Positions 6,662 to 50,893 of a DNA stretch of 64,000 nt are shown piece after piece. Below the pieces are notes generated by a model that ran no database searches, was not told the origin of the DNA, and saw only the letters and a list, made by a program, of their open reading frames with translations. Every line of letters starts with the position of its first letter. Within the stretch, counting starts at the first letter, position 1. Source of the DNA: an uncultured bacterium. Lineage in GTDB: Bacteria > Chloroflexota > UBA5177 > JANWHV01. The DNA is taken from the NCBI GenBank assembly GCA_963729625.1, contig CAVSOU010000007.1, positions 288,001-352,000 of the forward strand, written 5' to 3'. A program made the translations under genes and the position numbers.

Positions 6662-6996
6662 CGGTGTCAGCCCTCGTTTCGGTTTCGCGCCACCGTCAGA
6701 CGCGATAGTACCGCACCTTCCACTCTCAGACCGTAGCCCAATCGTCCGCATGCATCAAGCCGCGCAGGTTACCGTCTTGTTAAGCTTTGGCAATCTCAGG
6801 CCGCCACCTGGTTGCGAGCGGCACAGGCAAGAAGGCCGAACACCACAAACCGAGCTGTCCAACCGATGATGCCGAGCCACCCCAACTGTGCTGTACACTC
6901 CATAGAGGCTAATAGCCGACCGCGGGCGTCGCCACGCGCACGGTTATCGAGATCGTCGAGCTGCCGGTTCTTCAGGCAAATACGGAGCACGCCTAG

Positions 6997-8034: not shown

Positions 8035-8251
8035 CACGATTCTAAAGATTACAATGTATTCTCTAGCGAACGTGTCTAGGTCGTAGTCCCTATGTCCCAA
8101 CAGATCAGACGTCGCGAGATGGGCGCGGCAAGGCGTACTATGAGAGACTGCGGCTGCGCGCTCGCGCTGGTCATGTGCGGTGCGACGAACCGCAGCACGA
8201 CGGGCGCGGCAACCTGCCACGCTTGAGCCGCATGAGGGGGAGGATACAAGA

Positions 8252-15896: not shown

Positions 15897-18350
15897 TTAC
15901 GCCCGCTGGGCCGGCTCGAGCACGAGTCGTCCTCCCAGTTCACGCCGCACGTCCCCAGGAGCAAGCGACATTGGGTGGTATCGACCTGCCTTCCACGCCA
16001 CGAGCATATCGTCGTAGTGCTCGCTTGCTACGTGCCCAGATTGCCCGGTTGCGTGCATCGAGATGCACCGCGGAAGGTCGCCCATGTCGACGATCTGCCT
16101 GTACGATGAGGCCCAGCCGTTGCTGTCGAACGGGCTGTGCAGGGGAAGACACGCGGCCGCGACCGTGTTGTCGTCCCCTCCCATCTCCACGGGACCCAGA
16201 TTAAGCCAGCGAGCGAGCAGCGGCCGTGTGCCGAGTACATGGGCGAAACCTAGCTGATTGAGGCGTCCCCATCGCCAGCCGGATATGTCCGGTCCCAAGC
16301 GCCTGGTCAGGAATGCAAGCGTACCGGTAAAAGATCGACGGATGACGGCGTCCCATGAGCAATCTTGCGCGCCAAGTCGTTTGAACCAGCCGTCTTCGTG
16401 TCTTCGCGCCAGGTCATAGACGAATGGGATCGCTCTCGTGAAGAACCCGTTGCGGGGGGTTTGCGGTGATGACCCCGAGCCAAGATAGGTTTCAGTAAGG
16501 TCGCCAAGTACAGGCTCGAACACCGCCCGCAGCAGGTGATGCTGAAACGCGAGTGCAATACACCCTCCAACGGAGTCGGCAGTGAGATAGCCGTCCCATT
16601 CTCGTACCCTGGCAAGCGCACTGATTTCCAGGACAGTGCCTGGAGTTATGGCTCCAAGAAGTTCGGTCGCGTCCCGACCGGGCAATGAATAGAGGTCGAG
16701 CTGGATCTGCTGGAAATCTTCCACCGTCAGGCCGGTCCGGCTGCCGAGCAAATCGGTGATGCGCCGGGCCCGATAGCCGGGTAGCCACTCGTAACCGAGG
16801 TGGTATGGATAATTGGCCCCGACCAGGCGGTTGTTGGCGGTGACTACCTGGTGGGTATTGGGATTATGCGAATGCGGCAGGGTGTCGAATGGCACGTACC
16901 CCGTCCATTCGTATTCGCCGGTCCAGCCCGGCACCGGAAGCGTCCCATCACCCTTAGATCGAATTGGAACAGTGCCCGCGGCATGGTAACCGATATCACC
17001 GTCGACGTGCGCGCAGATGAAGTTCATGCACGGAGCGGTCCACAGGCGTAGGGCGTCTACGAAGGCGTTCCAGGTCTCGGCCCGGTTTATAGCAAGCGCT
17101 GCATCCGCGACGTTCCCTGGCTCAAGCGCTGTCCAGCGCAGCGCTATACCGCGGTGGCCAGGGTCGATCACAGGACTAATGATCGGACCGTGGTGCGTGA
17201 CAAGCACGTTCTCGACAACTGGGAACGACCTCCCCTGCACCTCGATTCTCTCGCGGACTACTGTTCCATCGCGCCAGCCGCCCTCGAAAAGGTATTGTCC
17301 AGCGTGGTCCGGGTTGACCTGCTCGATAACAAGATCCTGGGTGTCGATGAATGACGCCGTGATACCCCAGCTGATGTGTTCATTGTGGCCGATGAGCACG
17401 CCAGGCGTACCAGCGAGTCCGGCACCTGTGACAACCATGCCCGGACCGGTCAGCTCGACCTCATACCAGACTGAGGGCACTTGAATGCCGAGATGCGGAT
17501 CGTTCGCTAGCATCGGCTTGCCGGAGGCAGTCCTGGTACCGTCGACCACCCAACTATTACTGAATCCGCCAAGACCGATACCGGTGCCGGCTAGAAACGG
17601 CTCCAGCTCGGCATAGGCGTCAAACAGTCCCGAGGTTAGCAACGGCGATGCGAGCTCCCCAGGAACCACCAGCGGATGCTTCGTGCCAGCCCATGGTTCC
17701 AGAGCCGCGGCTCGCACCGGCCCAACCTTTTCCACGAGTGACGCACGCACTACTTCGCTGGTCCAGTTTGAGCTGAGGCCGAAGGCCAGCACCTTTCCGA
17801 TCACCAGCGTGTCGACGACGTCCCAGGGCTCGGGTCGCCAGCGGAACAGTGCAGGCCGCAGGAGGCGTAACAGCTCAAACTCGACAGGCGACTTTCCTCG
17901 AGCATGCGACATGTGGAAATTTACCCCGCGCGTGTAGGCTTCAAGTGCGCCGCGGACGGCTGGCGCGAGAAGCGCGACCTCACGCTCGGCCACGCGACGC
18001 AACCCGATGCGACGCATGAACCTGTCGGCCCGGACCGTGGTCTCTCCAAATAGCTCGGAGAGCCTCCCCGAGCCGACGCGACGAAAGAGCTCCATCTGCC
18101 ACAAGCGGTCCTGGGCATGCACGAATCCATTTCCGAAAATGAGGTCATCCGCCTGCGATGCGACGATATGTGGAATGCCCCAAGCGTCGCGATCGATCGT
18201 GACGACACTTTGTAGGCCCGGTACAGAGACCGTACCCGCGGTGTCGGGCAGGGAGCCGGCAACCATTCGCTTGATACCTGCCGTGCCTAAGCCTGCCACC
18301 GTCGCCGCCGTGACAGCCACGGAACCCGCTGCTCGCACCCACGATGCCAT
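15897..18350 (-). CDS. Penicillin acylase family Ntn hydrolase (peptidase S45)
   Basis: RDAWGIPHI, HAQDRLWQM, SNSWVV nucleophile Ser, LANDPHL, GQSGH; GGAGG RBS. Confidence 0.95.
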   Translation of the reverse strand: MASWVRAAGSVAVTAATVAGLGTAGIKRMVAGSLPDTAGTVSVPGLQSVVTIDRDAWGIPHIVASQADDLIFGNGFVHAQDRLWQMELFRRVGSGRLSELFGETTVRADRFMRRIGLRRVAEREVALLAPAVRGALEAYTRGVNFHMSHARGKSPVEFELLRLLRPALFRWRPEPWDVVDTLVIGKVLAFGLSSNWTSEVVRASLVEKVGPVRAAALEPWAGTKHPLVVPGELASPLLTSGLFDAYAELEPFLAGTGIGLGGFSNSWVVDGTRTASGKPMLANDPHLGIQVPSVWYEVELTGPGMVVTGAGLAGTPGVLIGHNEHISWGITASFIDTQDLVIEQVNPDHAGQYLFEGGWRDGTVVRERIEVQGRSFPVVENVLVTHHGPIISPVIDPGHRGIALRWTALEPGNVADAALAINRAETWNAFVDALRLWTAPCMNFICAHVDGDIGYHAAGTVPIRSKGDGTLPVPGWTGEYEWTGYVPFDTLPHSHNPNTHQVVTANNRLVGANYPYHLGYEWLPGYRARRITDLLGSRTGLTVEDFQQIQLDLYSLPGRDATELLGAITPGTVLEISALARVREWDGYLTADSVGGCIALAFQHHLLRAVFEPVLGDLTETYLGSGSSPQTPRNGFFTRAIPFVYDLARRHEDGWFKRLGAQDCSWDAVIRRSFTGTLAFLTRRLGPDISGWRWGRLNQLGFAHVLGTRPLLARWLNLGPVEMGGDDNTVAAACLPLHSPFDSNGWASSYRQIVDMGDLPRCISMHATGQSGHVASEHYDDMLVAWKAGRYHPMSLAPGDVRRELGGRLVLEPAQRA

Positions 18351-18438
18351 GTGGACCTCCTTCTTCCCTTCCACGCTAATCGTTCATCCTGCCGTCAGTC
18401 AAGAGAGACACGCCACAAGGCTGTGTTACACTGAAGAT

Positions 18439-35878: not shown

Positions 35879-36101
35879 CGCTTCCTCCCATTGGTGGTGA
35901 GTAGCGCCAGGTGCTATCTCCTCTGAGGTACACGAAGCGACACCGGCATGTTGGCAGCCGCCGAAGAGATAGCCTGAGCGTGAACAGGATCATGGTTCAG
36001 TATAGCTGGGCAGCTGCGCTTCTCGAATACCTCGCCGCGAAGCAGCGCCCCGCCCGTTTTGCCTCGCGGGCCGAACGATCGAAAGCCGCAGGGTGAAGAT
36101 C

Positions 36102-37088
36102 CTAGCAGCCTATCTCGATGTCTCGTAAGACCATCAGCAGGAAGGCATGTGAGGGAGCGAACTGGCGCCCGACAGTCACCCTGAGCTCGGCAATAGCTTC
36201 GTCGGGATCTCGAGGCTCACGGTAGGGGCGGCCCGATCGAATTGCTTCATACGCGTCGGCAAGGCCGATCAGTTGAGCATGCAGCGGGATAGCGCCGCCG
36301 GAAAGGCGGTCAGGATATCCCGTGCCGTCCCATCGCTCGTGATGATGGCGGATGGCCGGGGCGAGGTGGGCAAGGCTCGCTACCCGCCGAATTATGCGAT
36401 CTCCGGCGGCCGGATGGATCCGCATGGAAGTCCACTCTCCGTCGGACAGGGCCGCGCGTTTGCGAAGCAACTGGTTGGATACACCTATCTTGCCTATGTC
36501 ATGCAGCATTGCCGCCGTCTCGAGCGCAAGCAGAGCAGGGGGTTGAAGGTCCATGGCGCCGCCAAGACTCGTGACGAGCCGCCGTACAGTGTAGCTGTGT
36601 CTGGCTGTGGCCGGCTCGTGAATTTCGAGCATTTGCATCATCGCGTCAGCCGCTTGCTGGACGCTTTCGAGACGCCCGAATGAAGCGAGCAGCAGCGCGC
36701 GCACATGCGCAGCGTACGCTCTCGCCAGCGACACGTACTCGTGCTGGCTGGCCACGTATCCATGGTCATACAACAGAACCAGCGCTCCGCGAACACCGTA
36801 CACGGGTCCAATTGGTGACGCTGCCAACCCGGGCTGGCTCACGCACTCACCGCGCTCGAGCGCGTGCAAGGCATGCGCCCGCCAAGCGCTCAGGTGACCG
36901 CGCCCAGCAGTCAGATCCGCGAGATCGCCCTCCTGGGAAGCGATCAGGACGCGTGCTCCTATCCCGGCATCCGATGCGTCATCAAGGATCGCTTGGAGAG
37001 CAGGCCGCAGCAGCGGGTCGCACTCCCAGAGCGATCTGCTTTCGTGTGTCGCCCGTCTAGCCGGCGACAGCCTCGCGACATGTGGCAT
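36102..37088 (-). CDS. HD-GYP cyclic dinucleotide phosphodiesterase with degenerate GAF-like N-terminus
   Basis: HSYTV, MLHDIGK, HHERWDGTGYP, ADAYEAI, RPYR; GGGAGGG RBS. Confidence 0.9.
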   Translation of the reverse strand: MPHVARLSPARRATHESRSLWECDPLLRPALQAILDDASDAGIGARVLIASQEGDLADLTAGRGHLSAWRAHALHALERGECVSQPGLAASPIGPVYGVRGALVLLYDHGYVASQHEYVSLARAYAAHVRALLLASFGRLESVQQAADAMMQMLEIHEPATARHSYTVRRLVTSLGGAMDLQPPALLALETAAMLHDIGKIGVSNQLLRKRAALSDGEWTSMRIHPAAGDRIIRRVASLAHLAPAIRHHHERWDGTGYPDRLSGGAIPLHAQLIGLADAYEAIRSGRPYREPRDPDEAIAELRVTVGRQFAPSHAFLLMVLRDIEIGC

Positions 37089-37311
37089 TGGTCGAAGCCC
37101 TCCCGTAAAGACGCGGCAACAAGATGGTTGCAAACGTGCGCAGATCGCGAGCCTGGATGTCAGCCACCATCGCTGCATCCTTGGGCGAGAGACCAAACTT
37201 CAGTGCCGTGGCACGGGGGTTGCCGAGCAGGTCTGCGCCAAAAGAATGATCGACCGCAGCGGTTCCAATGAGACGCTCAAACCCTGCGTGCAATGTTGGA
37301 TGAGGAGCCAT
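37057..37311 (-). CDS. Small NHLP/Nif11-leader-like protein (84 aa)
   Basis: ERLIGTAAVDHSFGADLLGNPRATALKFGLS resembles the A..D..F...LL.NP...L...GL leader pattern; GAAAGGG RBS. Confidence 0.72.
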   Translation of the reverse strand: MAPHPTLHAGFERLIGTAAVDHSFGADLLGNPRATALKFGLSPKDAAMVADIQARDLRTFATILLPRLYGRASTNATCREAVAG

Positions 37312-37339
37312 GTGTCAATGCCCTTTCAGTTCTCGCCGA

Positions 37340-37657
37340 TTACTGGTGCGCCACGTGAAGAGGCCGGCCGGTGATGCCGCTGGCGCTGCTGAGTTTGGCG
37401 TGCAGAGGTCGCCCGGTGATGCCGCTGGCGCTGCTGAGCTTGGCGTGCAGTGGGCCGCCGGTGAGGCCGCTGGCGTTGTTGAGCTTGACGCGCAGTGGGC
37501 CGCTGGTGATGCCGCTGGCGCTGTTGAGCTTGACGTGCAGTGGGCCGCTGGTGATGCCGCTGGCGGTCGCGTGGACCTGCGAATCGGCGTTGACGGCAAC
37601 GGTACAGCCCGCGGCGAGAACGATCGCGACGGCAAGACCTCGCATTGCGCGAATCAT
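37340..37657 (-). CDS. Secreted precursor with five tandem 15-aa repeats (105 aa)
   Basis: AGAGGAG RBS; signal peptide MIRAMRGLAVAIVLAAGCTVAVNA; repeats of type ASGITSGPLHVKLNS. Confidence 0.85.
   Translation of the reverse strand: MIRAMRGLAVAIVLAAGCTVAVNADSQVHATASGITSGPLHVKLNSASGITSGPLRVKLNNASGLTGGPLHAKLSSASGITGRPLHAKLSSASGITGRPLHVAHQ
37352..37565. repeat. 45-bp coding tandem repeat, about 4.7 copies
   Basis: GTGA(T/G)GCCGCTGGCG recurs at 37371, 37416, 37461, 37506 and 37551. Confidence 0.95.
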
Positions 37658-37868
37658 GGCAAGATACTCCTCTAGGACTAATGTTCCAAACCAAAGCAAA
37701 GTTCACTGCCTGAACATGGTCTGACAGACACGCCGTACCCACATCGGCTCACGTGTGACCGCCGCTAGCTGCAGCCACGGCCGGATAGCAAAACCAACCC
37801 GGAATGATACCAGGACACTACTCGTCTGTTCGCGCCCACAGACCCGCAATATCGGCGGCCAAGTGACA

Positions 37869-37874
37869 TATAAT
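37869..37874 (+). promoter_or_regulatory. Candidate -10 box for the STAND-BTAD gene
   Basis: TATAAT in GC-rich DNA about 110 nt upstream of 37987; no clear -35. Confidence 0.35.
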
Positions 37875-37986
37875 AGCTGTGGCCGTAACCGCGCCCTCGA
37901 AACCTGGTCTGGCCACTTGCCGCCGTAGGCAGGTTAGCACAGGGACCCTGAGCGCACCCTGAGACGGTTTCAGGAGAGAGTAGCCC

Positions 37987-40900
37987 GTGGCAGTCGGCGA
38001 CGTACCCGGCAATCCACCCTGGTCCACGGCAAAAACGCGCGTCCCCATGCCGCGAATCCTCGTGTCGCGGCCGCGGCTGATCCATCCGCTGAACCTCGCC
38101 GCGACGTCCGGACGCGTCACGCTGATCGTCGCCCCCGGCGGCTCCGGGAAGAGCTCCCTGGTGGCAGACTGGACGCGACAGGCGTCGATGCCGGTTGCAT
38201 GGTATACGGTGGATGCCGCGGACCGCGACATACGCCGGCTGGCCGCGGGACTCTGCGGCGCCATCGCCCGCGTGTTGCCGGGGGTCGCAGATGCCGCGTT
38301 TCGCGCGATCGACAGCGGAGCGACTGAAGTCGCCGCAATCGGCCTGCTTCTGGACCGGCTCGAAGATCACTCGATAACCCTCGTACTGGACGACTTCCAC
38401 CATCTTGACGGCTTACCAGAGGCCACGGCCCTGTGGGAACATTTCTTCCGCTTCAGGCCGCCGACCATGGCGCTCACCATTCTCTCGCGCACGGTGCCGA
38501 TCTTGGGCTTTGCCATGCTCGCCGCGATGGACGCCCTGCTGGGCTTGGGACGCACGGACCTGAGCTTCGCGCTTGACGAAGCAGCTGAGTTACTTGCTAA
38601 GCATGGATTGGATCCGGCGCCGGCCGCTCAGTTCGTGGCGCGCACCGACGGTTGGGCGACCGGTCTGCTCATGCTTGCGCGGTCCGCTCCGAGCGGGGTT
38701 CGCCAGCTCCACGTGAGTGTGGACACGCTCATGGATCAGCTCGGAGCCGAGCTCCTCAGCTCGTTGTCGCCCGACCTTCGCACGTTCCTGCTCGAAAGCG
38801 CGTCGCTGGGGCCTGTGACAGCCGATGAGGCAGACGAGATTATCCAACACACTCGCAGCCAGGCCCTGTTCGCGGACATATTGCAACGCGGGCTCTTCCT
38901 CACCAGGGACGGTACGACATATCGCTACCACGACCTCTTCGCCGATTACTTCATCGCAGTCCTGCGCGCCGAGGCGCCTACCAAGCTGCGTGCCATCCGC
39001 GAGCGCGCCTCCGCGTACTGGTGCGCTCAGGGAGACTTGCCTCGCGCGCTAGGCCTGCTGGCCGACGACGGCAACTGGCGGGCGCTTGCTTCCCTGCTCG
39101 AATCGCAGAGAGGTGCGCTGTGGGATCAGGCAATGTGGGGAACAGCCATAGACATGGTCGATCGCTTGCCGGAGAGCCAGCGAACGCCGCGCGTATTGGC
39201 GTTAAGTGCAGCGTGTCATGCCTCACGCGGTGAATATGCCCTCGCCCTGTCACGTGCCGACGCCGGAATGGCGGCCGCAAGAGACGAAAGCGAGTGGCTT
39301 AGCTGTGCCGTAACGCACGCAGATACGTTGCACGGCGAAGGCAGGCTCGAGGAATGTTCGCGGAGCGCCGAAGCCGCTCTTGCCGTCGCACGGCAGATTG
39401 GGCATGCTGCGGCGATAACCCGTCTCCTTAGCTTGCGGGGCCGCGCTCGGCTGGGTCTCGGTATGACGGAGGCAGGTATGGTTGACATGGCGGCGGCGCT
39501 GGACGCCCACGCTGCCGATCGAGACGTGGATGCGGAGGCCATCACGCTCTACAACCTGGCTTTGAGCCTAACCGAAGCCGGTCGCTGCACGGGATGCGAC
39601 GAGTATTTTGCACGTGCTGCGGCAATCTGGAGCCGGAAGGGTGACATGCAGCGGCTCGCGGCAGTGCTTAACCTTCGCGCAATCCATCAGTGGCAAACCG
39701 GCAACCTGCGGGCAGCCGAGGAGGATGCTCGCGCGGCGTTGTCGACACTCGGCGAGGCCGGTTCCCCACTCCGGGCCTGCGAGATCATGGCTACTTTGTG
39801 CATCGTCTGCGCCGAGAAGTCAGACATCACCGAGGCCGAGAATCTCGCTCCTAGAACCATCGAGCTGTGCGAGCGCGTCTATGCAGTTGCAGCCGCGAAT
39901 GAAGCGAGGCGGTCGCTCATTTGGTGCGCGCTGGTGCGACGCAATCGCTCCGGTACCAGGCAACTGATTGAGGACGCCCGACAACAACCCCTCACACCCA
40001 CGGACTCGGCGTTGCTTGACGTGCTCGAAGGTACGCTCGCGATCCGTGCGGGCGCTTATGCGCGAGCGGCCGACGTGCTTGGCGACGCCGCCCACAGACT
40101 CGAGGGGCTGCAGCGGCCTCAGTACGCGGCCCGTGCGCTGATACTTCGCGCCGAGGCGCTCTTGGCAGGTGGCTCGGTCAGTCGCGCCGAGGAGGCGTTG
40201 AATCACCTGGCGACGCTGGTCCTGCCATTGGGGTGCGACGGCTTCCTACGACCCGTAACGCGCATGACGCGCCAGGTCCTCGCCGAGCGGCAGATCTTGC
40301 GAAAGCTGCGGAGAGATACGCGGGATTTGCTGGAGCAGCTAGCCGCCGGGACACCAACGCTGACCGTTGTGACGCAGTCACGCAAGTCGGAAAGCGCGCC
40401 GCCGCTTCTACGTGTCTCACCATTTGGCCCGGGTAAGCTGTACTTCGACGGACGCACCATCGACGCAACCGCCTTGCCGCCGCGCGCACGTGAGGTACTA
40501 TGCTTTGTCACACACCAGAAGGGTTCGGCCGAGCGCAACACGCTCGTGGAGACCATCTGGGAGGGCGACGTGCGCGCGGCTCAGTCGCTCTGGGATGCGA
40601 GCCGGCACATTCGACGGCTGCTCGGGGAGCGGTACTGGACGACTCGCGGCGGGACGTATCGCTTGAACCTCGTGGTGAATGACGACGCGATCCAGGTTGA
40701 CGCAGACGTGGCTGCCATTCAGGGAACTGGTACCGACATCGAGAAGCTCGCCGCAGGCGAGCGTGTACTCGAGTTGATACAACCGGGCGCTTTCATGGAG
40801 TGGTGTGGAAGCCTCTGGGCAACGGCACTCCGCGCGCACTACGGTCAGCTTGCGCTATCGGCGGCCCTAGCGACCGCGGCGCTGTACGATCGGTTGGGGC

Positions 40901-41166
40901 GCGCGATGGAGGGTACCTCGACGCTGCGCCAGGCCATCGCTATCGACCCCCTTGACGAGCGTCCACGCGAAGCCCTGGTTCGCTGCCTGAGCGCCCAGGG
41001 GTTAGTGCAGCAGGCTGTCGATGAGTACCGTGCGTACCGCGCCCTGGTCCAGCAAGAGCTCGATGAAGAGCCTTCGCCGCAATTGCGGCGTTTGGTAGCG
41101 CGCCTGGGCAAGGCCATCGGGCAGGATGGCGACCCCGCGTCGGGCCCGCCTCGCCGGAGCCCATGA
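37987..41166 (+). CDS. MalT-like STAND NTPase - TPR - wHTH - BTAD transcriptional regulator
   Basis: APGGSGKS Walker A, LVLDDFH Walker B, TDGWATGL, YRYHDLF, TPR-like helices, C-terminal DPLDE...ELDEEPSP; GGAGAG RBS. Confidence 0.9.
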   Translation: MAVGDVPGNPPWSTAKTRVPMPRILVSRPRLIHPLNLAATSGRVTLIVAPGGSGKSSLVADWTRQASMPVAWYTVDAADRDIRRLAAGLCGAIARVLPGVADAAFRAIDSGATEVAAIGLLLDRLEDHSITLVLDDFHHLDGLPEATALWEHFFRFRPPTMALTILSRTVPILGFAMLAAMDALLGLGRTDLSFALDEAAELLAKHGLDPAPAAQFVARTDGWATGLLMLARSAPSGVRQLHVSVDTLMDQLGAELLSSLSPDLRTFLLESASLGPVTADEADEIIQHTRSQALFADILQRGLFLTRDGTTYRYHDLFADYFIAVLRAEAPTKLRAIRERASAYWCAQGDLPRALGLLADDGNWRALASLLESQRGALWDQAMWGTAIDMVDRLPESQRTPRVLALSAACHASRGEYALALSRADAGMAAARDESEWLSCAVTHADTLHGEGRLEECSRSAEAALAVARQIGHAAAITRLLSLRGRARLGLGMTEAGMVDMAAALDAHAADRDVDAEAITLYNLALSLTEAGRCTGCDEYFARAAAIWSRKGDMQRLAAVLNLRAIHQWQTGNLRAAEEDARAALSTLGEAGSPLRACEIMATLCIVCAEKSDITEAENLAPRTIELCERVYAVAAANEARRSLIWCALVRRNRSGTRQLIEDARQQPLTPTDSALLDVLEGTLAIRAGAYARAADVLGDAAHRLEGLQRPQYAARALILRAEALLAGGSVSRAEEALNHLATLVLPLGCDGFLRPVTRMTRQVLAERQILRKLRRDTRDLLEQLAAGTPTLTVVTQSRKSESAPPLLRVSPFGPGKLYFDGRTIDATALPPRAREVLCFVTHQKGSAERNTLVETIWEGDVRAAQSLWDASRHIRRLLGERYWTTRGGTYRLNLVVNDDAIQVDADVAAIQGTGTDIEKLAAGERVLELIQPGAFMEWCGSLWATALRAHYGQLALSAALATAALYDRLGRAMEGTSTLRQAIAIDPLDERPREALVRCLSAQGLVQQAVDEYRAYRALVQQELDEEPSPQLRRLVARLGKAIGQDGDPASGPPRRSP

Positions 41167-41960: not shown

Positions 41961-42135
41961 GGGAGTGCATCCTCAACCTCAACGCGGAACCAAGTCGCGC
42001 CCCACTGTGTGGCCGTCGATACGGCCGCTCCTGTATGTTGTCCCTTGAGGCACGTCGGCCGCGACTCACCTGTCGCAAGGCACCGCCACCAGGAGTTGGG
42101 AATACTTGCGCGGTCGCAGACCACGCTCGGGCGAA

Positions 42136-42699
42136 ATGGCAGCGTCTATGGTTCTGGGACACCCTGACAAGCCGGCCGAACCTGCAGCAAGTCGACCCAG
42201 CGAGATTCGGGTGGTGCGCAGCGAACGACGGCGACGCACGGCCACGGTTCGCGAGAAGGACGGTTACTACGAGGTATTGGCACCGGCGCACTGGCCGGAT
42301 GATGTCTTGCAGCCGATTATCGTCCGACTGGTTCGCCGCCTTGAGAGACGGCGAACGAAAGACGCGCTTGACGATAGTGCTCTGCAGCGACGGGCGGCAA
42401 CCCTGCATGAGCGTTACTTCGAGGGACGGCCTCGATTGAGCTCTATTATCTGGGTCTCCAACCAGGATCAGCGATGGGGAAGCTGCTCACCGCGCGAAGG
42501 CGCGGTCCGTGTGTCGCACCGTTTGGCCGGCTTCCCTTCGTGGGTGCTCGATTATGTCATCGTCCATGAATTGGCGCACCTCGTGGTCGCAGCGCACAAC
42601 AGACGCTTCTGGAACCTTGTCGCGAGGTATCCGCTCGCGGAGAGGGCACGGGGCTATCTCATAGCAAAGGCCAGCGAAAGCCTGGAAGACGAGATGTGA
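42136..42699 (+). CDS. DUF45/YgjP-like zinc metallohydrolase
   Basis: NQDQRWGSC, VLDYVIVHELAHL, HNRRFW. Confidence 0.9.
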   Translation: MAASMVLGHPDKPAEPAASRPSEIRVVRSERRRRTATVREKDGYYEVLAPAHWPDDVLQPIIVRLVRRLERRRTKDALDDSALQRRAATLHERYFEGRPRLSSIIWVSNQDQRWGSCSPREGAVRVSHRLAGFPSWVLDYVIVHELAHLVVAAHNRRFWNLVARYPLAERARGYLIAKASESLEDEM

Positions 42700-42714
42700 A
42701 ACCCTGGAAGGAGC

Positions 42715-42750
42715 GGCCCGCCGCCTCACTTCGTCATGAGACAGCGGGCC
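42715..42750. terminator. Hairpin between convergent genes
   Basis: GGCCCGC...CTCA..TGAG...GCGGGCC. Confidence 0.35.
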
Positions 42751-42777
42751 ATGGCCAGACCAGGCCAGCGCCGCCGG

Positions 42778-45435
42778 CTATCCTTCGCGGCTAAGGCGGA
42801 TGCGTGCGTCGATGGCGACGACACCACTTCCGGCCGCGCGAACGACCACCGGATTCAGATCCAACTCAACAATCTCGGGTACATCTTCCACTAGGTGCGA
42901 AATACGCAGAAGCAAGTCTCTGACAGCCGGTATGTCGGATGGCGGGGCGCCGCGGTAACCCTTGAGCAGCGTTGCGACCTTGCGGTGCGCAATCAGCTCG
43001 TCAGCGTCGACGTCCGTGAGCGGATGGATGCGGAACGACACGTCGCCGAGCACCTCGGCAGTGACTCCACCGGAGCCAAAGGCGATGAGCGGGCCGAAGA
43101 TCGGGTCGCGCACGACGCCGACCAGGCATTCTATGCCACCGGTCAGCATGGGTTGCACAAGCGCACCTTCCATCCCCTTTTCCAACCCGCGCTCGGCCAG
43201 AGCCGTGGCGATGGCGGCATACGCCTCTGATGCCGCCTCAGGCGACTCTATGTTCAGGCGCACGCCACCCACGTCGGACTTGTGGAGAATCGTGCTGGAG
43301 ACTAGCTTCACCACGACCGGCGCGCCGATCTCCCGGCAAGCGTCGGCCGCCTCCGCGGCTGATCGCACGATCTTGCCGGTTGGCAGCGAGATGCCATAGT
43401 TGGTGAGCAGCTTCTCGATCTCTACCGCCGTCAGCCAGGGCCGCTCTTCCCGCGACAGCGCTCCAGCGACGATGCTTTGCGCGACACCGCGGTCGATCTC
43501 GGCGTACTCCGGAATCGTGCCGGCAGGCCTGCGCAGCCAGGTCGCCCTGGCGGCGGCCTGGCCGAGCGCGCGGGCTGCGGACTCGGGGAATGGGTACGCA
43601 GGTATCATGGTCTTGCTCTTGCTCAGCGCCTCGGGTACCGGGCAACCGACGAAACAGGCCAGGACCGGCTTGTCCGGCTGCGGATCGCAGACCTTCACGA
43701 GCTCTGCCGCGATATCTTCCGGGCTCGTGACCATCACCGGAATGTAGAGCGCGATCACCGAGTCGATTCCAGGGTCGTCCAGCAGCGTCTTGACTACCGC
43801 GGCGTATGTAGGAGCGGGAATGGACGCGATCATATCAATTGGATTGTTGACCGACGCCTCCGGAGGCAGCATGGAACGAAGCGTCGCCTTCGTTTCGTCG
43901 CGCAGCTGCGGGACTTCAAGTCCATTTGCTTCGCAAGCGTCGGCGCAGAGGATGCCCAGACCACCGGCGTTCGTCAGAACCGCGACACGCTTGCCCTTCG
44001 GGAGCGGCTGGTTCGCGAACAGCGTCGAGATCTCGAACAACTCCTCGAGCGTCTCGGCGCGAATGACGCCGGCCTGCTTGAACAACGCGTCGACCGCGAC
44101 GTCCGATCCAGCGAGAGCGGCTGTGTGGGAGGCGGCGGCGCGGCGTCCAGAGGTGGTGCGTCCACCCTTCACGGCCAAAATCGGTTTGCGCGCGCCAACA
44201 CGTCGAGCGATGCGGGCGAATCGGCGCGGATTACCGAACGACTCGAGGTAGAGCACGATCACCTTGGTCGCCGGATCCTCCTCCCAGTATTCGATCAAGT
44301 CATTGGAAGACAGGTCAGCCTTGTTGCCGATCGAGACAAACGTTGAGACTCCCAGGCCCAGCGAGCGTGCAGTCTGCAGGATCGCGATACCGAGAGCGCC
44401 GGATTGCGATGAGATCGCGATGGAGCCACTGGGCGGCAACGTGGGGGTAAAGGTCGCGTTGATCGCCCCATGCTCGCTGCTGACCAGAACGCCAAGGCAG
44501 TTTGGTCCCACCATGCGAGCTCCGTACGTGCGGCAAAGATACAGCAATTCGTCTTGGTGCGCACGCCCTTCGGCGCCAACCTCGGCGAACCCTGCTGAAA
44601 TCACTACGAGAGCCTTCACGCCTGCTTCGAGACAATCGCGCGCTGCGTCGAGGACTCGGGATGAGGGCACGACGATAATCGCCAGATCCACAGTGTCCGT
44701 AATCGACTTGACGTTCGGAAACGCCTTGACTGAAGAGACGGAAGTGGCCAACGGGTTGACTGGATACACAGCGCCTTCATAACCGCCCTGGAGCAGGTTG
44801 CTGAACACGGCCTGGCCAATCGATCCTGGCCGTCGGGAAGCGCCGACAACCGCGATCGCCCGCGGGTGGAAGAGTGGATCGAGGGACTTGACGGCTGCCA
44901 CGTGCCTGCGTTCATCTGCGCGAGCATAATACCCTTGGTCCGTGTGCAGATCGACTTCTACCTGCACGGTGCCTTGCTCGTATACGCGCTTCTGCTTGAA
45001 GCCCAGGTCACCTAGCAAGGTGAGCATCTCGCTGTTTTGGGCGCTCACCTCGGCAATAATCCGGGTGATGCCCGCGTGGCGCGCGTCGTTCGAAAGATAC
45101 TCGAACATCACCGTACCAATACCGTTGCCCTGCTCGGGATCGTCGACTACAATCGCCATTTCAGCCGCGGTCGGGTCGACGAGGCGGTTGAACGATGCAA
45201 CTGCAATCACGCGGTTCTCGCGTTCGGCGACCAGAGCGTGCCCTGCGACGACGCTCTGAACTAGATCGTCACTGATGCGAACGCCGGCGGAGTGAAATCG
45301 TTGAGCTCGGCTCTCTGGGGACATACGATTGAGCAGGGCGGCGACGGCAGCATTGTCAGCCGGCAGGAACTCGCGAATCAGCGCCTGACTCCCGTCGCGG
45401 AGCAGGGCGAATTCGCCGGCGGGCATGGTTATCAT
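42778..45435 (-). CDS. GNAT / NDP-forming acyl-CoA synthetase-like fusion (Pat-type protein acetyltransferase)
   Basis: N-terminal GNAT (QGNGIGT), AVVGAS, GPNCLG, SQSGAL, GNKAD, ASHT, HKSDVGGV ATP-grasp. Confidence 0.93.
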   Translation of the reverse strand: MITMPAGEFALLRDGSQALIREFLPADNAAVAALLNRMSPESRAQRFHSAGVRISDDLVQSVVAGHALVAERENRVIAVASFNRLVDPTAAEMAIVVDDPEQGNGIGTVMFEYLSNDARHAGITRIIAEVSAQNSEMLTLLGDLGFKQKRVYEQGTVQVEVDLHTDQGYYARADERRHVAAVKSLDPLFHPRAIAVVGASRRPGSIGQAVFSNLLQGGYEGAVYPVNPLATSVSSVKAFPNVKSITDTVDLAIIVVPSSRVLDAARDCLEAGVKALVVISAGFAEVGAEGRAHQDELLYLCRTYGARMVGPNCLGVLVSSEHGAINATFTPTLPPSGSIAISSQSGALGIAILQTARSLGLGVSTFVSIGNKADLSSNDLIEYWEEDPATKVIVLYLESFGNPRRFARIARRVGARKPILAVKGGRTTSGRRAAASHTAALAGSDVAVDALFKQAGVIRAETLEELFEISTLFANQPLPKGKRVAVLTNAGGLGILCADACEANGLEVPQLRDETKATLRSMLPPEASVNNPIDMIASIPAPTYAAVVKTLLDDPGIDSVIALYIPVMVTSPEDIAAELVKVCDPQPDKPVLACFVGCPVPEALSKSKTMIPAYPFPESAARALGQAAARATWLRRPAGTIPEYAEIDRGVAQSIVAGALSREERPWLTAVEIEKLLTNYGISLPTGKIVRSAAEAADACREIGAPVVVKLVSSTILHKSDVGGVRLNIESPEAASEAYAAIATALAERGLEKGMEGALVQPMLTGGIECLVGVVRDPIFGPLIAFGSGGVTAEVLGDVSFRIHPLTDVDADELIAHRKVATLLKGYRGAPPSDIPAVRDLLLRISHLVEDVPEIVELDLNPVVVRAAGSGVVAIDARIRLSREG

Positions 45436-46965: not shown

Positions 46966-47619
46966 TCACTCGTGACCAAGGGCGCGTTGCTCCGCCAGGA
47001 ACGCAGCCGCCTGAGCACGCCGCTCCATACCCAGCTTGCTGAGAATGGTGCTCACGTAGTTCTTCACCGTCTTCTCGGACAAGTAGACGATAGTGGCGAT
47101 CTCACGATTCGTTTTCCCCTCCGCGATCAAGCCAAGAATGCGCCTCTCTTGTTCGGAGAGCTCAGACAGCTTGTCCTTGTGTCCACCACTTGCCATCTCG
47201 CGCATCCTCGTGAGCACCTTACCCATCACGCTCGGGTCTAGAAGAGATTCACCGCGCGCGACTGCCTCGATGGCACTTACAAGCTCGCGCCCTCGCGTCT
47301 GCTTGAGCAGATAGCCGGCCGCACCCGCGATGATCGCGGCGTAGACGGCCTCGTCGTCTGCGTAGCTCGTGAGCATGAGGACCTGGATCTCGGGATGGTC
47401 GGCCCGAATTTCCCTGCATGCCTCGATGCCCGTCCCGTCCGGCAAGCGCACGTCCATGACGATAACGTTTGGCAGTTCGCGCCCCGCTGCCTCGACGGCC
47501 TCCGCGACCGTCGCTGCCTCGGCAACCACGCGAATGTTCTCTCTCCGCTCCAGCAGCGACTTCAACCCTTGCCGCACGACCTCGTGATCGTCGACAAGCA
47601 TCACACGGATGTCAGCCAC
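46966..47619 (-). CDS. NarL/DosR-like response regulator
   Basis: LVDDHEVVR, MDVRLPDG, LTSYADDEA, TVKNYVSTILSKLGMERRAQAA. Confidence 0.93.
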   Translation of the reverse strand: MADIRVMLVDDHEVVRQGLKSLLERRENIRVVAEAATVAEAVEAAGRELPNVIVMDVRLPDGTGIEACREIRADHPEIQVLMLTSYADDEAVYAAIIAGAAGYLLKQTRGRELVSAIEAVARGESLLDPSVMGKVLTRMREMASGGHKDKLSELSEQERRILGLIAEGKTNREIATIVYLSEKTVKNYVSTILSKLGMERRAQAAAFLAEQRALGHE

Positions 47620-49027
47620 GGCCCTCCTCCAGTCCACCCACGGCCACGGGCACGCGTGCGCTTACCGTGGCGCCTCCGCCCGGCTCTGACTGGATCGTCA
47701 GGCAACCGCCAAGAGCGAGCGCGCGGTCGCTCATGTTGCGTAACCCCTGATGCTCAGGGGCATGCGCTGCGTTTGTGTCGAAGCCTGCACCGTTGTCCGT
47801 GATCTTCAGCTCAACGAATCCAGCCGCTCCTTGTAGTGTAATCCAGATGCACCCAGCGCGCGCGTGGCGCACAACGTTTGTCACTGCCTCGCGCGCGATC
47901 TGGAGCAGCTCATCCGCTGCTGCCTGGGGAAGACGGGCCATGGCCGGTCCACGAACGTCGAGCTCAGTCTCGAGCAGAGAATGAGCGTGCGTCCGTGCAA
48001 GCAGCGCAGCTAATGCCTCCGGAAGTGAATCGGCGTCATCCTCCGCCTTGAGGCCGAGCACATAGCTGCGCAACTCCTTGATGACCTGTTCGAGCCGCTC
48101 AATCGCGCCGGAAATGCGCGCTCGAGCATCGCCTGGTTTCGCCTCCAGATCGTCGTGCGCACATTCCAGCTCAAGGTTGACACCGAAGATCGCCTGGATC
48201 ACGCTGTCGTGCAAGTCCATGCGAATGCGTTCGCGTTCTGACGCCACCGCCAGCATACGGATACGCTCGGACATGCGCGCGTGCTCGATTACCACGGCCG
48301 CATAGCTTGCCAGCATGCTCAGCAGGCCCTCATCGTCTTCCGCGAACTCCGCCGCCCCAACTTTGTCTGCAAGATAGAGGTTGCCGACAATGTTGCCACC
48401 CTGAGAAACCGGCACGCCCAGCAACGTGCGCATTTCCGGATGGCCGGCGGGGAAACCGGAACGTCGCGGGTCAGTCGACAAATCGGCGATTCGGACCGGC
48501 GCACCTTGATGCAGCATGACGCCCAGGACACCATGGCCCGACGGGGGAGCCCCTATGCTTGTCCGATCCTCCCGAGAGATGCCGGAGGTGTAGAAGGCGT
48601 CGATCTCGCTGCCGATGCCCACTACCCCAAGCGCGGCGTACTTGGCGCCAATAAGGTCGCGTGCCAGATCGACCAGACGCTGCAATGTCTCATCCGTGTT
48701 TCGGGCAGCAGCGATTGCCAGCGAGGCCTGATGCAGTGCCTCCATCTGCGCGCGCAGCCGTCGCTCGGTGGCAAGACGCTGCTCGAGCTCAGCATACTGG
48801 CTCGCCAGATTTCGATCCTGACGGGCGATGATCCGGAACATGCCGGTCGAAAAACTCACCACGCCTACAGCGGTCACCCCGATCGCGAGAGCGCCCGTGG
48901 CGTAGCTTGGCCAATCCGAAAGCAGCCTGGTGATGAAGAGGTAGAAAAGACAAAGCAAGATGAGCGGCACGACAATGCTGAACAAGCGCAGACCTCTGCG
49001 CCGACTGCGCAATTCATTCCCATGCAT
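47612..49027 (-). CDS. Membrane-anchored GAF HisKA_3 kinase, DosS/T-like
   Basis: Two TM helices; GFPAGHPEMRTLLGVP; ERERIRMDLHDSVIQ. Confidence 0.9.
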   Translation of the reverse strand: MHGNELRSRRRGLRLFSIVVPLILLCLFYLFITRLLSDWPSYATGALAIGVTAVGVVSFSTGMFRIIARQDRNLASQYAELEQRLATERRLRAQMEALHQASLAIAAARNTDETLQRLVDLARDLIGAKYAALGVVGIGSEIDAFYTSGISREDRTSIGAPPSGHGVLGVMLHQGAPVRIADLSTDPRRSGFPAGHPEMRTLLGVPVSQGGNIVGNLYLADKVGAAEFAEDDEGLLSMLASYAAVVIEHARMSERIRMLAVASERERIRMDLHDSVIQAIFGVNLELECAHDDLEAKPGDARARISGAIERLEQVIKELRSYVLGLKAEDDADSLPEALAALLARTHAHSLLETELDVRGPAMARLPQAAADELLQIAREAVTNVVRHARAGCIWITLQGAAGFVELKITDNGAGFDTNAAHAPEHQGLRNMSDRALALGGCLTIQSEPGGGATVSARVPVAVGGLEEGRG

Positions 49028-49102
49028 TGCAGCGTAGTGCCCTCGTTGCCGCACACCCACCAACTCGTGATCTTACGCTAGCAACGAGTGAGCGTAATGC
49101 CG

Positions 49103-49142
49103 TAGGGCCATGGGTCATAACATATGCGGCACTTTGGCCCTG
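49103..49142. promoter_or_regulatory. Candidate paired DosR-type operator sites
   Basis: AGGGCCA(49104-49110)...TGGCCCT(49135-49141) inverted; partial match to GGGACTWWAGTCCC. Confidence 0.4.
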
Positions 49143-49249
49143 ACAGACATACGAGACGCCGGGAAACGGCAATGCCCTGACGTTTCGGCATCACTCAGGC
49201 GCAGTTGGTGCTGCACCGGGGTCCCCTGAATGCAAGGTTCGGGCGAACG

Positions 49250-50893
49250 CTACTCACCGAACGGCACAAACGCCGTGACGGTCGTACCGGCGTCGATCTT
49301 GCTCTGTAACGAAAGCGTTCCGCCTACCTCGTCGGTGCGCACCCGCATATTGCGGATGCCACGGTGCTCGTAGCCCCGAGCGGCCCTTGGATCGAAGCCT
49401 CGGCCGTCGTCCTGCACCACGAGCGTCGCGCCCGCTCCCTCATAGGTCAAGCGGACTTCGACGGTCGACGCGGCCGCGTACTTCACTACATTGGAGAGCG
49501 CCTCACGTGCTATCAGCATCAGGGTGTTGGCCTGGTCGTCGGGAAACTCATATGGCTGCCCTTCCAGGATGAAGCGCGCTCGAAGACCGCATTGTCCATC
49601 GCTGTCGCGAGTGATAGCCGAGATACCGTCGGCCAAGAGGTGGCCGTCGAGAGGGCGCGCGCGGAGGCCCTGAATGTAGGTCCGAATATCGGTAATCGTG
49701 CCTGAAAGCCTGTCCGTCACTCCAGTCAACCGATCGCGAAGCGGTTGCACCTCAACGTCCTCGGAAATGTCTTCGAGTTGCAGAGTTGCCGCGTAGATGT
49801 CCTGAATGATACCGTCATGCAGATCTCGACCGATACGCTCTCGCTCGTGCAGCAATGTCAGCTCACCCAGCTGTGTGTACAGCCGCGCGTTTTCTATCGC
49901 GATACCCGCGTGAGCTGCCAGCAGCTCGATCTGCCGTTGATCCTCTTCCAGGAATTCTGGGCCGCCGATCTTGTCGGTCAAGTAGAGATCGCCGACGACC
50001 TGGCCGTGTACGCGGATCGGGACACCCAACAAGCTTGTCATGTTTGGGTGTTGCGGTGGAAAGCCCACGCGACGGGGATCCTTGCTAATGTTGGCAACGC
50101 GTAATGAACGGCCGAGGCGAATCAGCACGCCCAGAAGTCCGTGGCCGCGGGGAACGCTGCCGATCTTCTCGCGTTCATCCTGCGTTATGCCGGTGGTGAT
50201 GAACTCGCTCAGGTAGCCGTCAGACCCGACGACTCCCAGGGCTCCATACTGCGCACCCGCAATACTGGCGGCAGCCGACACGATGCGCTGCAAAACCTGA
50301 TCGAGTGAGAGTTCCGAGGCCAGGCCCTTGCTGGCGTCGTCGAGCGCGAGCATGCGCTCACGCATAGCCTTGTCCTGTTGATGCACGAGCGCATTCGCCA
50401 GCCCCTGACCGGCGAGCTTGCCGAGCGCGCGAAGTGACTCGGTCTCCGAGGAAGATGGTCGATTCGCATAAAGCAGCACCAACGCCGCGACCAGCATGTC
50501 GTCGCCGTAGAGCGCGAGGACGCGAATCGTGCCTGGACGTCGCTTTCCTCTTAGCAACGGCGGGTCCAGGTCGGGATTCGAACCAGTATCAAATTCCAGG
50601 AGATCCGCAGTCTCCGCAGCCCTCTTCGCTACTGCTTGAATGCTCTCGTAGCCTTGGCGCTGCAGCCATCGCTCGTCGAGATCTCCGCTTGTGCCGGCGC
50701 CCGCTGGCAAAAAGTCACCTGCGTCGCGCTCGTACAGGAGGACCAGAGAGGCGTCTGCACCGCCAATCACCATCGCATGGGATGCAAGCCGGCCAACGAG
50801 GGTTGTTACATCGCGTGTCGCACACAGATCCTCCGCGATGTGCCACGCGTGAAACGTCATGCCAGCCCGGCTGTCAATATCTTGTGTCCGCAC
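49250..50893 (-). CDS. Soluble double-GAF HisKA_3 kinase, DosS/T-like
   Basis: GFPPQHPNMTSLLGVP; ERERIGRDLHDGIIQ. Confidence 0.9.
   Translation of the reverse strand: MRTQDIDSRAGMTFHAWHIAEDLCATRDVTTLVGRLASHAMVIGGADASLVLLYERDAGDFLPAGAGTSGDLDERWLQRQGYESIQAVAKRAAETADLLEFDTGSNPDLDPPLLRGKRRPGTIRVLALYGDDMLVAALVLLYANRPSSSETESLRALGKLAGQGLANALVHQQDKAMRERMLALDDASKGLASELSLDQVLQRIVSAAASIAGAQYGALGVVGSDGYLSEFITTGITQDEREKIGSVPRGHGLLGVLIRLGRSLRVANISKDPRRVGFPPQHPNMTSLLGVPIRVHGQVVGDLYLTDKIGGPEFLEEDQRQIELLAAHAGIAIENARLYTQLGELTLLHERERIGRDLHDGIIQDIYAATLQLEDISEDVEVQPLRDRLTGVTDRLSGTITDIRTYIQGLRARPLDGHLLADGISAITRDSDGQCGLRARFILEGQPYEFPDDQANTLMLIAREALSNVVKYAAASTVEVRLTYEGAGATLVVQDDGRGFDPRAARGYEHRGIRNMRVRTDEVGGTLSLQSKIDAGTTVTAFVPFGE

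Follow-up and report, generated by a model that had tools for sequence, protein, structure and literature searches.

A Putative Exported Multi-Copy Pheromone Precursor Beside a STAND-SARP Regulator in an Uncultured Chloroflexota Bacterium

Introduction

The Rap-Phr systems, in which tandemly duplicated pheromone propeptides are processed outside the cell (as outlined in parts of PMC11343458), are the natural starting point for the locus reported here. This locus lies in a 64,000-nt stretch of DNA from an uncultured Chloroflexota bacterium (GenBank assembly GCA_963729625.1, contig CAVSOU010000007.1, positions 288,001 to 352,000 of the forward strand), the whole of which is called the window below; its centre is a small minus-strand gene, at positions 37340 to 37657 of the window, that encodes an N-terminal signal followed by five variant 15-residue repeats. 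To our knowledge, peptide pheromones with a cytoplasmic tetratricopeptide repeat (TPR) receptor have been described almost exclusively in Bacillota and their phages. We propose, with a probability of roughly 55%, that the gene encodes an exported multi-copy pheromone precursor and that the regulator encoded divergently from it is the cognate cytoplasmic receptor, so that the pair would work in the manner of Rap-Phr with unrelated parts; export, processing and binding are what we infer in this proposal.

The likeness to Rap-Phr and to the wider RRNPP(A) systems is one of layout: a small gene for a predicted exported propeptide adjoins the gene of a cytoplasmic TPR receptor (compare the systems covered in sections of PMC11343458 and PMC9765709) and, as in the Phr propeptides treated in PMC11343458, one propeptide carries several copies of the putative pheromone. 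The differences concern the parts. Unlike the receptors of RRNPP(A), the one proposed here is a STAND NTPase of 1059 aa that carries its SARP module at the C-terminus and has no RRNPP homology; unlike the RRNPP(A) systems of Bacillota, the present one is found in Chloroflexota and has an NHLP-like protein and an HD-GYP protein as fixed parts of its module. With an unrelated receptor and two further genes as constant parts, the locus is not a member of the RRNPP family, despite its RRNPP-like proposed working. RRNPP systems also have peptide/receptor allele pairs that differ between strains, and in this they resemble the loci described below.

A second comparison is offered by the large SARP regulators of Streptomyces of the AfsR type. 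They share with our regulator the set of SARP (winged helix and BTAD), NOD and TPR domains, and the targets of AfsR share with our promoter direct repeats at a spacing of 11 bp, of which the 3' one is 8 bp away from the −10 element (passages of PMC10936776 on AfsR); these same passages describe control by phosphorylation and ATP, with no peptide ligand. Unlike in AfsR, the order of domains is reversed in our regulator, NOD and TPR coming first and the SARP module being C-terminal, and its TPR sensor co-varies with a neighbouring peptide that is probably secreted.

Precursors with repeated cores are known from other contexts as well. In multi-core precursors of ribosomally synthesized and post-translationally modified peptides (RiPPs) of the cyanobactin PatE type, conserved flanks bracket short, hypervariable, repeated cores in variable copy number; unlike these, our precursor has a predicted secretion signal in place of a leader, no maturation enzyme in or near its module, and copies that within a gene tend to be identical rather than different. 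Yeast alpha-factor and other Kex2-processed fungal precursors likewise combine a signal peptide with tandem pheromone copies and basic spacers; these are eukaryotic, with a dedicated dibasic protease and a membrane receptor, and no relationship is implied. NHLP precursors, finally, consist of a leader and then a core peptide after a Gly-Gly-type motif. The 84-aa protein encoded next to our precursor is similar in sequence and size to Os1348 of Pseudomonas sp. Os17 (about 85 aa; PDB 6lk7; covered in part of PMC7726476); unlike Os1348, it scores below curated cut-offs and its partners are a repeat peptide with a secretion signal, an HD-GYP protein and a STAND-SARP regulator. A search of full-text literature, subscription journals lying outside it, returned no paper tying SARP/STAND regulators, NHLP proteins or Chloroflexota to peptide pheromones.

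The Precursor Gene and Its Repeats

The gene and its elements are laid out as follows.

37340..37657, minus strand: precursor gene, 105 codons plus stop; signal peptide, then five tandem 15-aa units
37568..37657, minus strand: export signal, residues 1-30, by inspection; basic n-region (R3, R6), hydrophobic core GLAVAIVLAAGCTVAV, c-region ending VHA
37343..37564, minus strand: five repeat units, residues 32-105; the last unit ends HVAHQ and is followed by the stop
37667..37673, minus strand: ribosome-binding site AGAGGAG, 9 nt ahead of the ATG; kept in the same-genus genome G001

The open reading frame (ORF) at 37340-37657 translates as MIRAMRGLAVAIVLAAGCTVAVNADSQVHAT and then ASGITSGPLHVKLNS, ASGITSGPLRVKLNN, ASGLTGGPLHAKLSS, ASGITGRPLHAKLSS and ASGITGRPLHVAHQ before the stop, which is exactly what a preliminary description of this DNA had read (a signal peptide, DSQVHAT and five variant 15-mers). 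Tandem Repeats Finder reports a repeat of period 45 at 37362-37565 (4.5 copies, 88% matches, score 301), and this repeat is no chance pattern. That neighbouring copies are most alike, as had been noticed before, is roughly true: per 45 nt, units 1 and 2 differ at 2 positions, units 1 and 3 at 4, units 3 and 4 at 6, and units 1 and 5 at 14. The core that we propose for this gene is ASG(I/L)T(S/G)(G/R)PL, separated from the next by the spacer (H/R)(V/A)KL(N/S)(S/N); its boundary is placed by analogy with those relatives in which cores abut directly or finish at the stop codon, and GP(L/V) terminates every core in the focal clade.

Choosing the frame was not straightforward. The five other frames are likewise open across the repeat, so that the precursor frame has to be argued from comparison. 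An antisense ORF at 37310-37675 (plus strand) is open over 121 codons with a high GC content at third codon positions (GC3), and a crude GC3-based caller chose it over the real gene; such open, high-GC3 antisense frames are a likely reason why precursors of this kind are missing or mis-called in databases. By codon position, the precursor has GC contents of 0.64 (GC1), 0.57 (GC2) and 0.83 (GC3), which fits the pattern of the window with its 62% GC. Sequencing runs yielded small shares of matching sequence; contigs of soil metagenome DNA match parts of the gene at about 98-99%, none of them spanning the repeat, and the two variant letters of one soil-metagenome relative (37568 and 37586) both fall on third codon positions of the precursor frame. 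The same N-terminus and repeat cassette are found at the equivalent position in other genomes, as homologues of the precursor. We consider it very probable that the precursor gene is real and that its core peptides are under selection. A single-sequence AlphaFold2 model of the protein has a mean pLDDT of 55.8, with no residue at 70 or above and a short strand in each spacer.

Relatives of the Precursor and the Conserved Module

Relatives of such a small repeat protein are hard to reach with the precursor itself. A word-indexed search with the focal precursor (P0001) among 5.8 billion clusters gave zero matches, and phmmer against 1.84 billion representatives gave 10 matches at E ≤ 1e-3. Seven of these were inspected: two are relatives, namely P0002, with five ASASGxSSGPL units and a database call that bears an apparently spurious N-terminal extension of 94 residues, and P0005, with three VTADGASGAPYGPLK units; the five others turned out on inspection to be unrelated repeat proteins (P0004, P0006 and P0010 stand outside the inspected set). 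Among 61 related genomes, P0001 has one clear match, in G001, with seven AGGA(N/S)GGPL units; the remaining entries of the match list, whose E values run from about 5e-4 up to almost 1, are noise, save that in G002, whose precursor was recognised as real solely through its genomic context. Between the focal genome (G000) and G001, the repeat protein is 46-50% identical and the flanking genes 74-90%. Most precursors of this kind escape gene callers. TSGPLH resembles plant CLE peptides, a likeness that was discarded as the His is not conserved in orthologues.

The precursor belongs to a module of four genes: the precursor, an 84-aa NHLP/LigA-like protein and an HD-GYP protein follow each other on one strand, and a STAND-TPR-SARP regulator is encoded divergently.

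37057..37311, minus strand: NHLP/LigA-like (Os1348/Frankia_peptide-like) protein, 84 aa; ends in AVAG with no core after it
36102..37088, minus strand: HD-GYP protein, 328 aa; unassigned N-terminal domain and C-terminal HD-GYP (HDIGK ... HHHERWDGTGYP)
37987..41166, plus strand: STAND regulator, 1059 aa; MalT-like AAA+ NOD, TPR sensor, C-terminal winged helix and BTAD (SARP)
39244..39966, plus strand: variable stretch of the TPR sensor, residues about 420-660; approximate, the G000 numbering being estimated

The NHLP-like gene starts 29 nt downstream of the precursor and, with its resemblance to RiPP leaders, had been missed in the preliminary description; the HD-GYP start (37088) overlaps its end by 32 nt, and the divergent regulator gene lies 330 nt from the precursor. 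The regulator matches AAA_16, AAA_22, TPR_12 and BTAD as its only Pfam families and MalT as its only NCBIfam model, the latter below cut-off.

Relatives of the locus were found with the 84-aa neighbour as the query, the scan profile being an alignment of five orthologues. Proteins of this family occur in 26 of 401 genomes of the phylum and in all four other genomes of the genus; a metagenome scan added 38 further loci, and a scan of genome collections returned only three loci that were already known. Wherever the flanks of a related locus are long enough, the module is present again. In 36 of the 38 metagenome loci, a small ORF whose N-terminus is hydrophobic precedes the NHLP-like gene by 33-123 nt in the same orientation (one of the two misses is at a contig start); such an ORF is also present in the three loci from genome collections and in all nine cassettes of the genus, four of which are paralogous. 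Over the 41 loci formed by the metagenome and genome-collection sets, the HD-GYP gene follows the NHLP-like gene in 39, the exceptions being cut by contig ends, and the STAND gene lies upstream and divergent in 37, that is, in all 37 with enough flank, the other four again being cut by contig ends. The four paralogous cassettes of the genus also have the STAND gene. In two cassettes of another family (G058 and G176), regulator, peptide and NHLP-like gene are present and a different gene follows. The focal genome has a single such STAND gene and a single such NHLP-like gene. The earlier suggestion of looking for similar precursors beside other BTAD genes thus yields a divided answer: there are none in this 87%-complete genome, and there is one or more in each of the four other genomes of the genus.

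A GNAT/acetyl-CoA-synthetase-type protein and a YgjP-like metallopeptidase encoded at 42106-45435 were considered as maturation genes and rejected, since their synteny does not extend beyond the genus and the paralogous cassette lacks them. PADLOC gave no defence-system match for the locus, apart from a generic HD similarity.

Hypervariable Cores Between Conserved Flanks

In all, 49 precursors were collected, of which 38 are distinct. Copy number, which the preliminary description had proposed to survey, runs from 1 to 7: in 26 of the 38 distinct precursors, a word of at least 5 aa is present in 2-7 exact copies, and the remaining 12 are single-copy. The repeat period varies between loci from about 6 to 16 residues. 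Across the 38 distinct forms, the signal peptide and the spacers are conserved, and the core, of 5-10 aa, is hypervariable from one locus to another.

This is best seen in ten close loci, which have an almost invariant signal peptide (MRLTARRIVAIAALALTTFAATHA) and conserved pieces ahead of the core (..SRQAG, ..HTT[VI]QAG), and in which the cores read GGHYEFG, NIFEL, GGLYQD, GGILE, GGITEY, TIVEL, TIYEF, GVIDFGKV and IIYQD. Mean identity between these loci is 95% for the NHLP-like protein and 88% for HD-GYP, while their cores differ. In some genes, the cores follow each other without any spacer (GGLYQD three times and TVVGPGPL three times in a row), and often the last copy finishes at the stop or close to it; abutting cores and a last copy at the stop set the boundaries of the core.

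Within a gene, on the other hand, the copies are kept alike. Over 21 precursors, the minimal changes between core copies of the same gene number 75 synonymous vs 7 non-synonymous; near-copies with up to one third mismatches were taken into this count, so that diverged copies are not hidden from it. Such a ratio shows translation in the precursor frame and purifying selection that keeps the copies of one gene alike. The idea of a multi-core precursor, advanced earlier from this one sequence, is thereby supported in outline: signal and spacers are conserved, the hypervariable cores are kept alike within each gene, and the copy number varies from 1 to 7.

Co-Variation of Core and Sensor

In the same ten loci, the STAND regulator also has a variable part. 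Columns 420-600 of the alignment, which belong to the helical repeat/sensor region, show 72-76% identity vs 96-99% on either side. Similarity between cores follows identity in this variable stretch (Mantel r = 0.61, p = 0.0007), and it follows neither the rest of the STAND protein (r = −0.05) nor HD-GYP (r = 0.05); once the rest of STAND is controlled for, a partial test yields r = 0.62 and p = 0.001. The one pair of loci sharing a core is 96% identical in the variable stretch, and three pairs with different cores (L050/L052, L048/L053 and L048/L062) are 94-98% identical elsewhere and 67-75% identical there. Three other clades agree in direction: with the same or similar cores, identity in the variable stretch is at least that of the rest, and with different cores it is below it. 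Between G000 and G001, the STAND proteins diverge most at residues 541-660 and also at 901-960.

The variable segments of peptide and sensor do not lie side by side. Between them come the N-terminal half of STAND, which is conserved, then the promoter region and then the signal peptide, so that a single swapped block fails to explain the association. The synonymous divergence (dS) of the variable stretch is 1.28 vs 0.35 elsewhere, and its ratio of non-synonymous to synonymous divergence (dN/dS) is 0.13 vs 0.11. These values point to alleles that are old and have persisted together, as pherotype loci would be expected to have, and not to recent positive selection. When STAND residues 400-860 and the mature peptide were modelled as a complex, the score was 0.14, to be set against a mark of 0.32, which speaks neither for nor against binding.

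A Putative SARP Promoter Upstream of the Precursor

The intergenic region provides a candidate target site of the regulator.

37963-37956 and 37952-37945, minus strand: two direct repeats CTCAGGGT, 11 nt start to start; SARP-box-like
37931..37939, minus strand: extended −10-like element TGCTAACCT; hexamer TAACCT at 37936-37931 preceded by TGn; fits TGnTAnnnT

On the minus strand, the layout reads CTCAGGGT-gcg-CTCAGGGT-ccctgtgc-TAACCT, with the hexamer 8 nt past the 3' repeat. In known SARP targets, the direct repeats are spaced by 11 or 22 bp, and 8 bp separate the 3' one from the −10 element (according to the relevant part of PMC10936776); the putative site upstream of the precursor agrees in sequence with this spacing rule. 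In seven divergent loci, the direct repeats and the −10-like element form the sole conserved island of an otherwise unalignable intergenic region. The pattern CAGG-N7-CAGG is found at most 420 nt upstream in 29 of 36 related loci and in the focal one, for an expectation of 0.035 per 420 nt. Since the adjacent regulator carries a SARP module, auto-regulation of the operon, with predicted binding, is the simple reading.

The position of the motif differs between clades: it lies 268-304 nt upstream of the precursor in G000, G003, G004, L058, L066 and L071, and 72-121 nt upstream in other clades. In the focal locus, a transcript started at this promoter would have a leader of about 265 nt ahead of the precursor ATG. 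This leader (37658-37924, minus strand) could contain an attenuator, in the form of a terminator-like hairpin and its T-run (37814-37798). A search of 36000-38100 against Rfam returned one match, far below threshold, and nothing in the leader; a generic scan for sigma-70 promoters and terminators yielded nothing useful on the operon promoter. A perfect TATAAT at 37869-37874 (plus strand), 113 nt before the GTG of the STAND gene, lies in a 20-nt block kept between G000 and G001 and is a candidate promoter of the regulator, back to back with that of the operon.

The Predicted Export Signal

By inspection, the hydrophobic core of the focal signal comprises 16 residues and is followed by VHA at residues 28-30. 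A basic n-region and a hydrophobic core are found in all 38 distinct forms, partly by construction, as the script selected on a hydrophobic N-terminus. A loose AxA-type site is present in 34 of the 38, and the n-region has an RR pair, likewise, in 34. Of the candidate sites for signal peptidase I (SPase I) in the focal clade, the one after (V/A)HA, at residue 30 in G000, is conserved best, and (V/A)HA or ALA is kept in orthologues. The preliminary description had suggested a cut at VNA/D (residue 24); the site at residue 30 is better conserved, and in an alignment with a sister clade it is VNA|D that falls opposite THA|G as the homologous site. A weak lipobox had been proposed as the alternative. 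With a lipobox pattern of the PROSITE PS51257 kind, Cys18 matches in 8 of the 38 precursors, all of the focal clade, and the Cys is absent from the other 30; hydrophobic residues carry on past Cys18. We infer from the N-terminal signal peptide that the precursor is exported.

Proposed Mechanism and Its Weighing

In the mechanism that we favour, the signal peptide would take the 105-aa pre-protein across the membrane, where SPase I would most likely cut after VHA30. Extracellular proteases would then free up to five cores of 8-9 aa (ASGITSGPL and two variants) from between the basic spacers, and the released core peptide would be taken up again. Uptake of peptides is at least possible in this organism, given 22 matches in the genome to the oligopeptide-type binding protein family PF00496, a family whose matches are unspecific. 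Inside the cell, the core would be recognised by the variable TPR-sensor stretch of the STAND (NOD-TPR-SARP) regulator, whose SARP module would activate the promoter with the two CTCAGGGT repeats. This promoter would drive the operon of precursor, 84-aa NHLP-like protein and HD-GYP, resulting in auto-induction and, through HD-GYP, in a change of cyclic di-GMP (c-di-GMP), the output that the presence of this domain suggests. Strains would carry different pairs of core and sensor alleles, i.e., pherotypes. The earlier opinion that an unmodified peptide is more likely sits well with a conserved module containing no modifying enzyme, from which we take it that the cores are probably left unmodified.

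Several observations weigh against this reading and have to be set out together. The regulator has no homology to any RRNPP receptor (Rap, NprR, PlcR, PrgX, Rgg or AimR), and the module includes neither a protease nor a transporter gene. Uniformity is lowest in the focal gene: its five cores are not identical, in keeping with the five variant 15-mers of the preliminary description, and it contributes 4 synonymous changes and 3 of the 7 non-synonymous ones. The lipobox-like Cys18 of the focal clade means that the product could stay lipid-anchored, and the RR pairs make the Tat route possible as well as Sec. The CAGG-N7-CAGG pattern is absent from 7 of the 36 related loci, and neither the paralogue L042 nor the distant locus L043 has it. 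The support in RNA amounts to a single metatranscriptome contig of 154 nt (37036-37189) over the NHLP-like/HD-GYP junction, which excludes the precursor, may be DNA carry-over and is weak evidence of expression. The gene, its frame, the four-gene module, the cassette pattern, the selection on core copies, the co-variation of core and sensor and the promoter motif are read from the DNA; export, cleavage, uptake, binding, activation and the role of HD-GYP are proposed steps.

The co-variation itself calls for the same caution. The Mantel signal leans on the GGLYQD/GIIYQD loci: it falls to r = 0.48 (p = 0.03) when L057 is left out and to r = 0.37 (p = 0.10) when both L057 and L063 are. The variable stretch was delimited after the identity profile had been seen, the comparison covers about 690 N-terminal residues of STAND, and the ten loci, judging by contig names, apparently come from a few related assemblies and are not independent. 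The dN/dS of the variable stretch is not raised. Last, the most conserved gene of the module, that of the NHLP-like protein, has no role in the pheromone model; this is the main gap, and it keeps alive a RiPP-type reading with enzymes encoded elsewhere.

A broader claim can be attached to the pheromone reading, and we advance it tentatively, as something a little short of an even bet: that the locus represents a new class of bacterial cell-cell communication outside Bacillota, in which a Sec/Tat-exported multi-copy pheromone is sensed by an NLR-like STAND protein (NOD-TPR-SARP), with long-lived pherotype alleles, the output being carried by the HD-GYP c-di-GMP enzyme together with the coreless NHLP-like protein. 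If true, this would be the first peptide pheromone system in Chloroflexota, extending peptide quorum sensing to a poorly studied and mostly uncultured phylum. It would provide the first peptide ligand for the "large SARP/LAL" regulators, whose ligands are mostly unknown, and with it a natural class of ligands for STAND/SARP sensors, a long-standing unknown in the regulation of Streptomyces antibiotics. The natural pairs of core and sensor alleles would make up a specificity panel on ligand recognition by NLR-like sensors, and the NHLP/LigA-like protein would be given a non-RiPP context.

Alternative Readings

The alternative that survives best, unlikely as we consider it, is that of a RiPP precursor whose cores are modified, ahead of export or following it, by enzymes encoded elsewhere, with the NHLP/LigA-like neighbour as a stand-alone recognition or adaptor protein and an antimicrobial or a modified signal as the product. 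The neighbour is what gives it substance. It scores 36.1 bits with NF038399 (the Os1348 model; cut-off 40) and 20.8 with PF14407 (Frankia_peptide; cut-off 48), below the cut-off in both cases, and by profile it matches PDB 6lk7 (E 7e-6), nitrile hydratase alpha chains and the NHLP leader chimera 8tb1; similarity at the level of the NHLP/nitrile-hydratase-alpha-like clan is thus supported. LigA-like domains occur both in RiPP leaders and in RiPP-recognition subunits (in the part of PMC12353581 that deals with them). Some distant NHLP-like members (L040 and L017) continue past the xxG motif. Moreover, hypervariable repeated cores between conserved flanks are also the pattern of multi-core RiPPs.

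Against this, the 84-aa protein terminates at ..AVAG in five of five orthologues, and in the database its family comprises 27 clusters, 23 of them of exactly 84 aa, every named one being annotated as hypothetical. It does not co-vary with the cores, its pairwise identity being 92-100% across loci with different cores. The window had been described as having no YcaO, LanM or radical SAM gene, and this holds for the ORFs that we scanned (12 in one scan, 50 in another, and those of a further one); among the ORFs scanned in the window, there is no LanC, ATP-grasp maturase, SagB-type or similar gene beside the module either. No maturation enzyme is conserved across loci, where the four genes alone recur. 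In the Os1348 cluster, as presented in sections of PMC7726476, GNAT, HEXXH and SagB-type genes come directly downstream, and the focal locus is without them. As for the precursor, a Pfam/NCBIfam scan of P0001 gave no match and no recognisable RiPP leader family; its N-terminus reads as a secretion signal, not as a known leader.

Slightly less probable again is an intact surface repeat protein, secreted or lipid-anchored, which would stay uncut and serve a structural or adhesive purpose. The Cys18 kept in the focal clade would suit a lipid anchor, and the short strand per spacer in the low-confidence AlphaFold2 model is a weak hint in the same direction. A structural repeat is, however, hard to reconcile with a copy number that goes down to one in 12 of the 38 distinct forms, with a period that changes so much between loci, or with cores that are identical within a gene yet wholly replaced between close strains; the Cys is missing from 30 of the 38 precursors, and a structural protein would give no reason for co-variation with a cytoplasmic sensor.

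We regard as quite improbable a third possibility, in which the STAND sensor is acted on, within the producing cell, by the precursor or by its cores, for instance as a dose-dependent feedback, export being incidental or serving for removal. Indeed, the co-variation shows that core and sensor are coupled and not where the two meet, and both the receptor and the NHLP-like protein are without export signals. Set against this, no part of the precursor is better conserved than the export signal (its presence in all forms being partly by construction), and the AxA-like site and the RR pair are each kept in 34 of the 38. The weakest idea, that of a tandem DNA repeat merely open in several frames and not a gene, could invoke the five other open frames, the antisense choice of the GC3-based caller (37310-37675) and the lack of a copy in the large protein database, and is next to negligible in view of the signal peptide, ribosome-binding site and cassette layout conserved in frame, the 38 distinct forms and the 75 synonymous vs 7 non-synonymous changes within cores.

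Distant Cassettes and Other Features of the Window

Distant relatives of the NHLP-like gene stand in more varied surroundings. In three loci from other families of the phylum (L019, L023 and L027), a polytopic membrane protein of 195-255 aa is encoded directly upstream, replacing the small secreted peptide. In L032 (1943-2413, minus strand), the upstream position is taken by ORFs made of many KxNPESFGS units and broken by a masked stretch; this locus has HD-GYP, and the ORFs may be a further form of the same cassette. In four other distant cassettes (L016, L018, L033 and L034), the 1059-aa STAND gene is replaced by a small SARP-like ORF (246-339 aa in L016, L033 and L034; a match to the SARP module in L018), and there are short ORFs that combine a hydrophobic segment with a tail containing Pro. 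In L040 (1420-1707) and L017 (1381-1692), the NHLP-like protein runs 15-30 residues past the xxG motif, and this extension could be a remnant or a true core.

Elsewhere in the window, a DnaA homologue is encoded at 8180-9688 (plus strand) and a signal peptidase I (S26) at 6134-6751, with housekeeping genes around them; the window may lie near the replication origin. An 825-aa protein of the penicillin-amidase family (PF01804), a family that includes acyl-homoserine-lactone acylases, is encoded at 15897-18374 (minus strand). At 46966-50893 (minus strand), two paralogous GAF-HisKA_3 histidine kinases lie in tandem with a LuxR-type response regulator.

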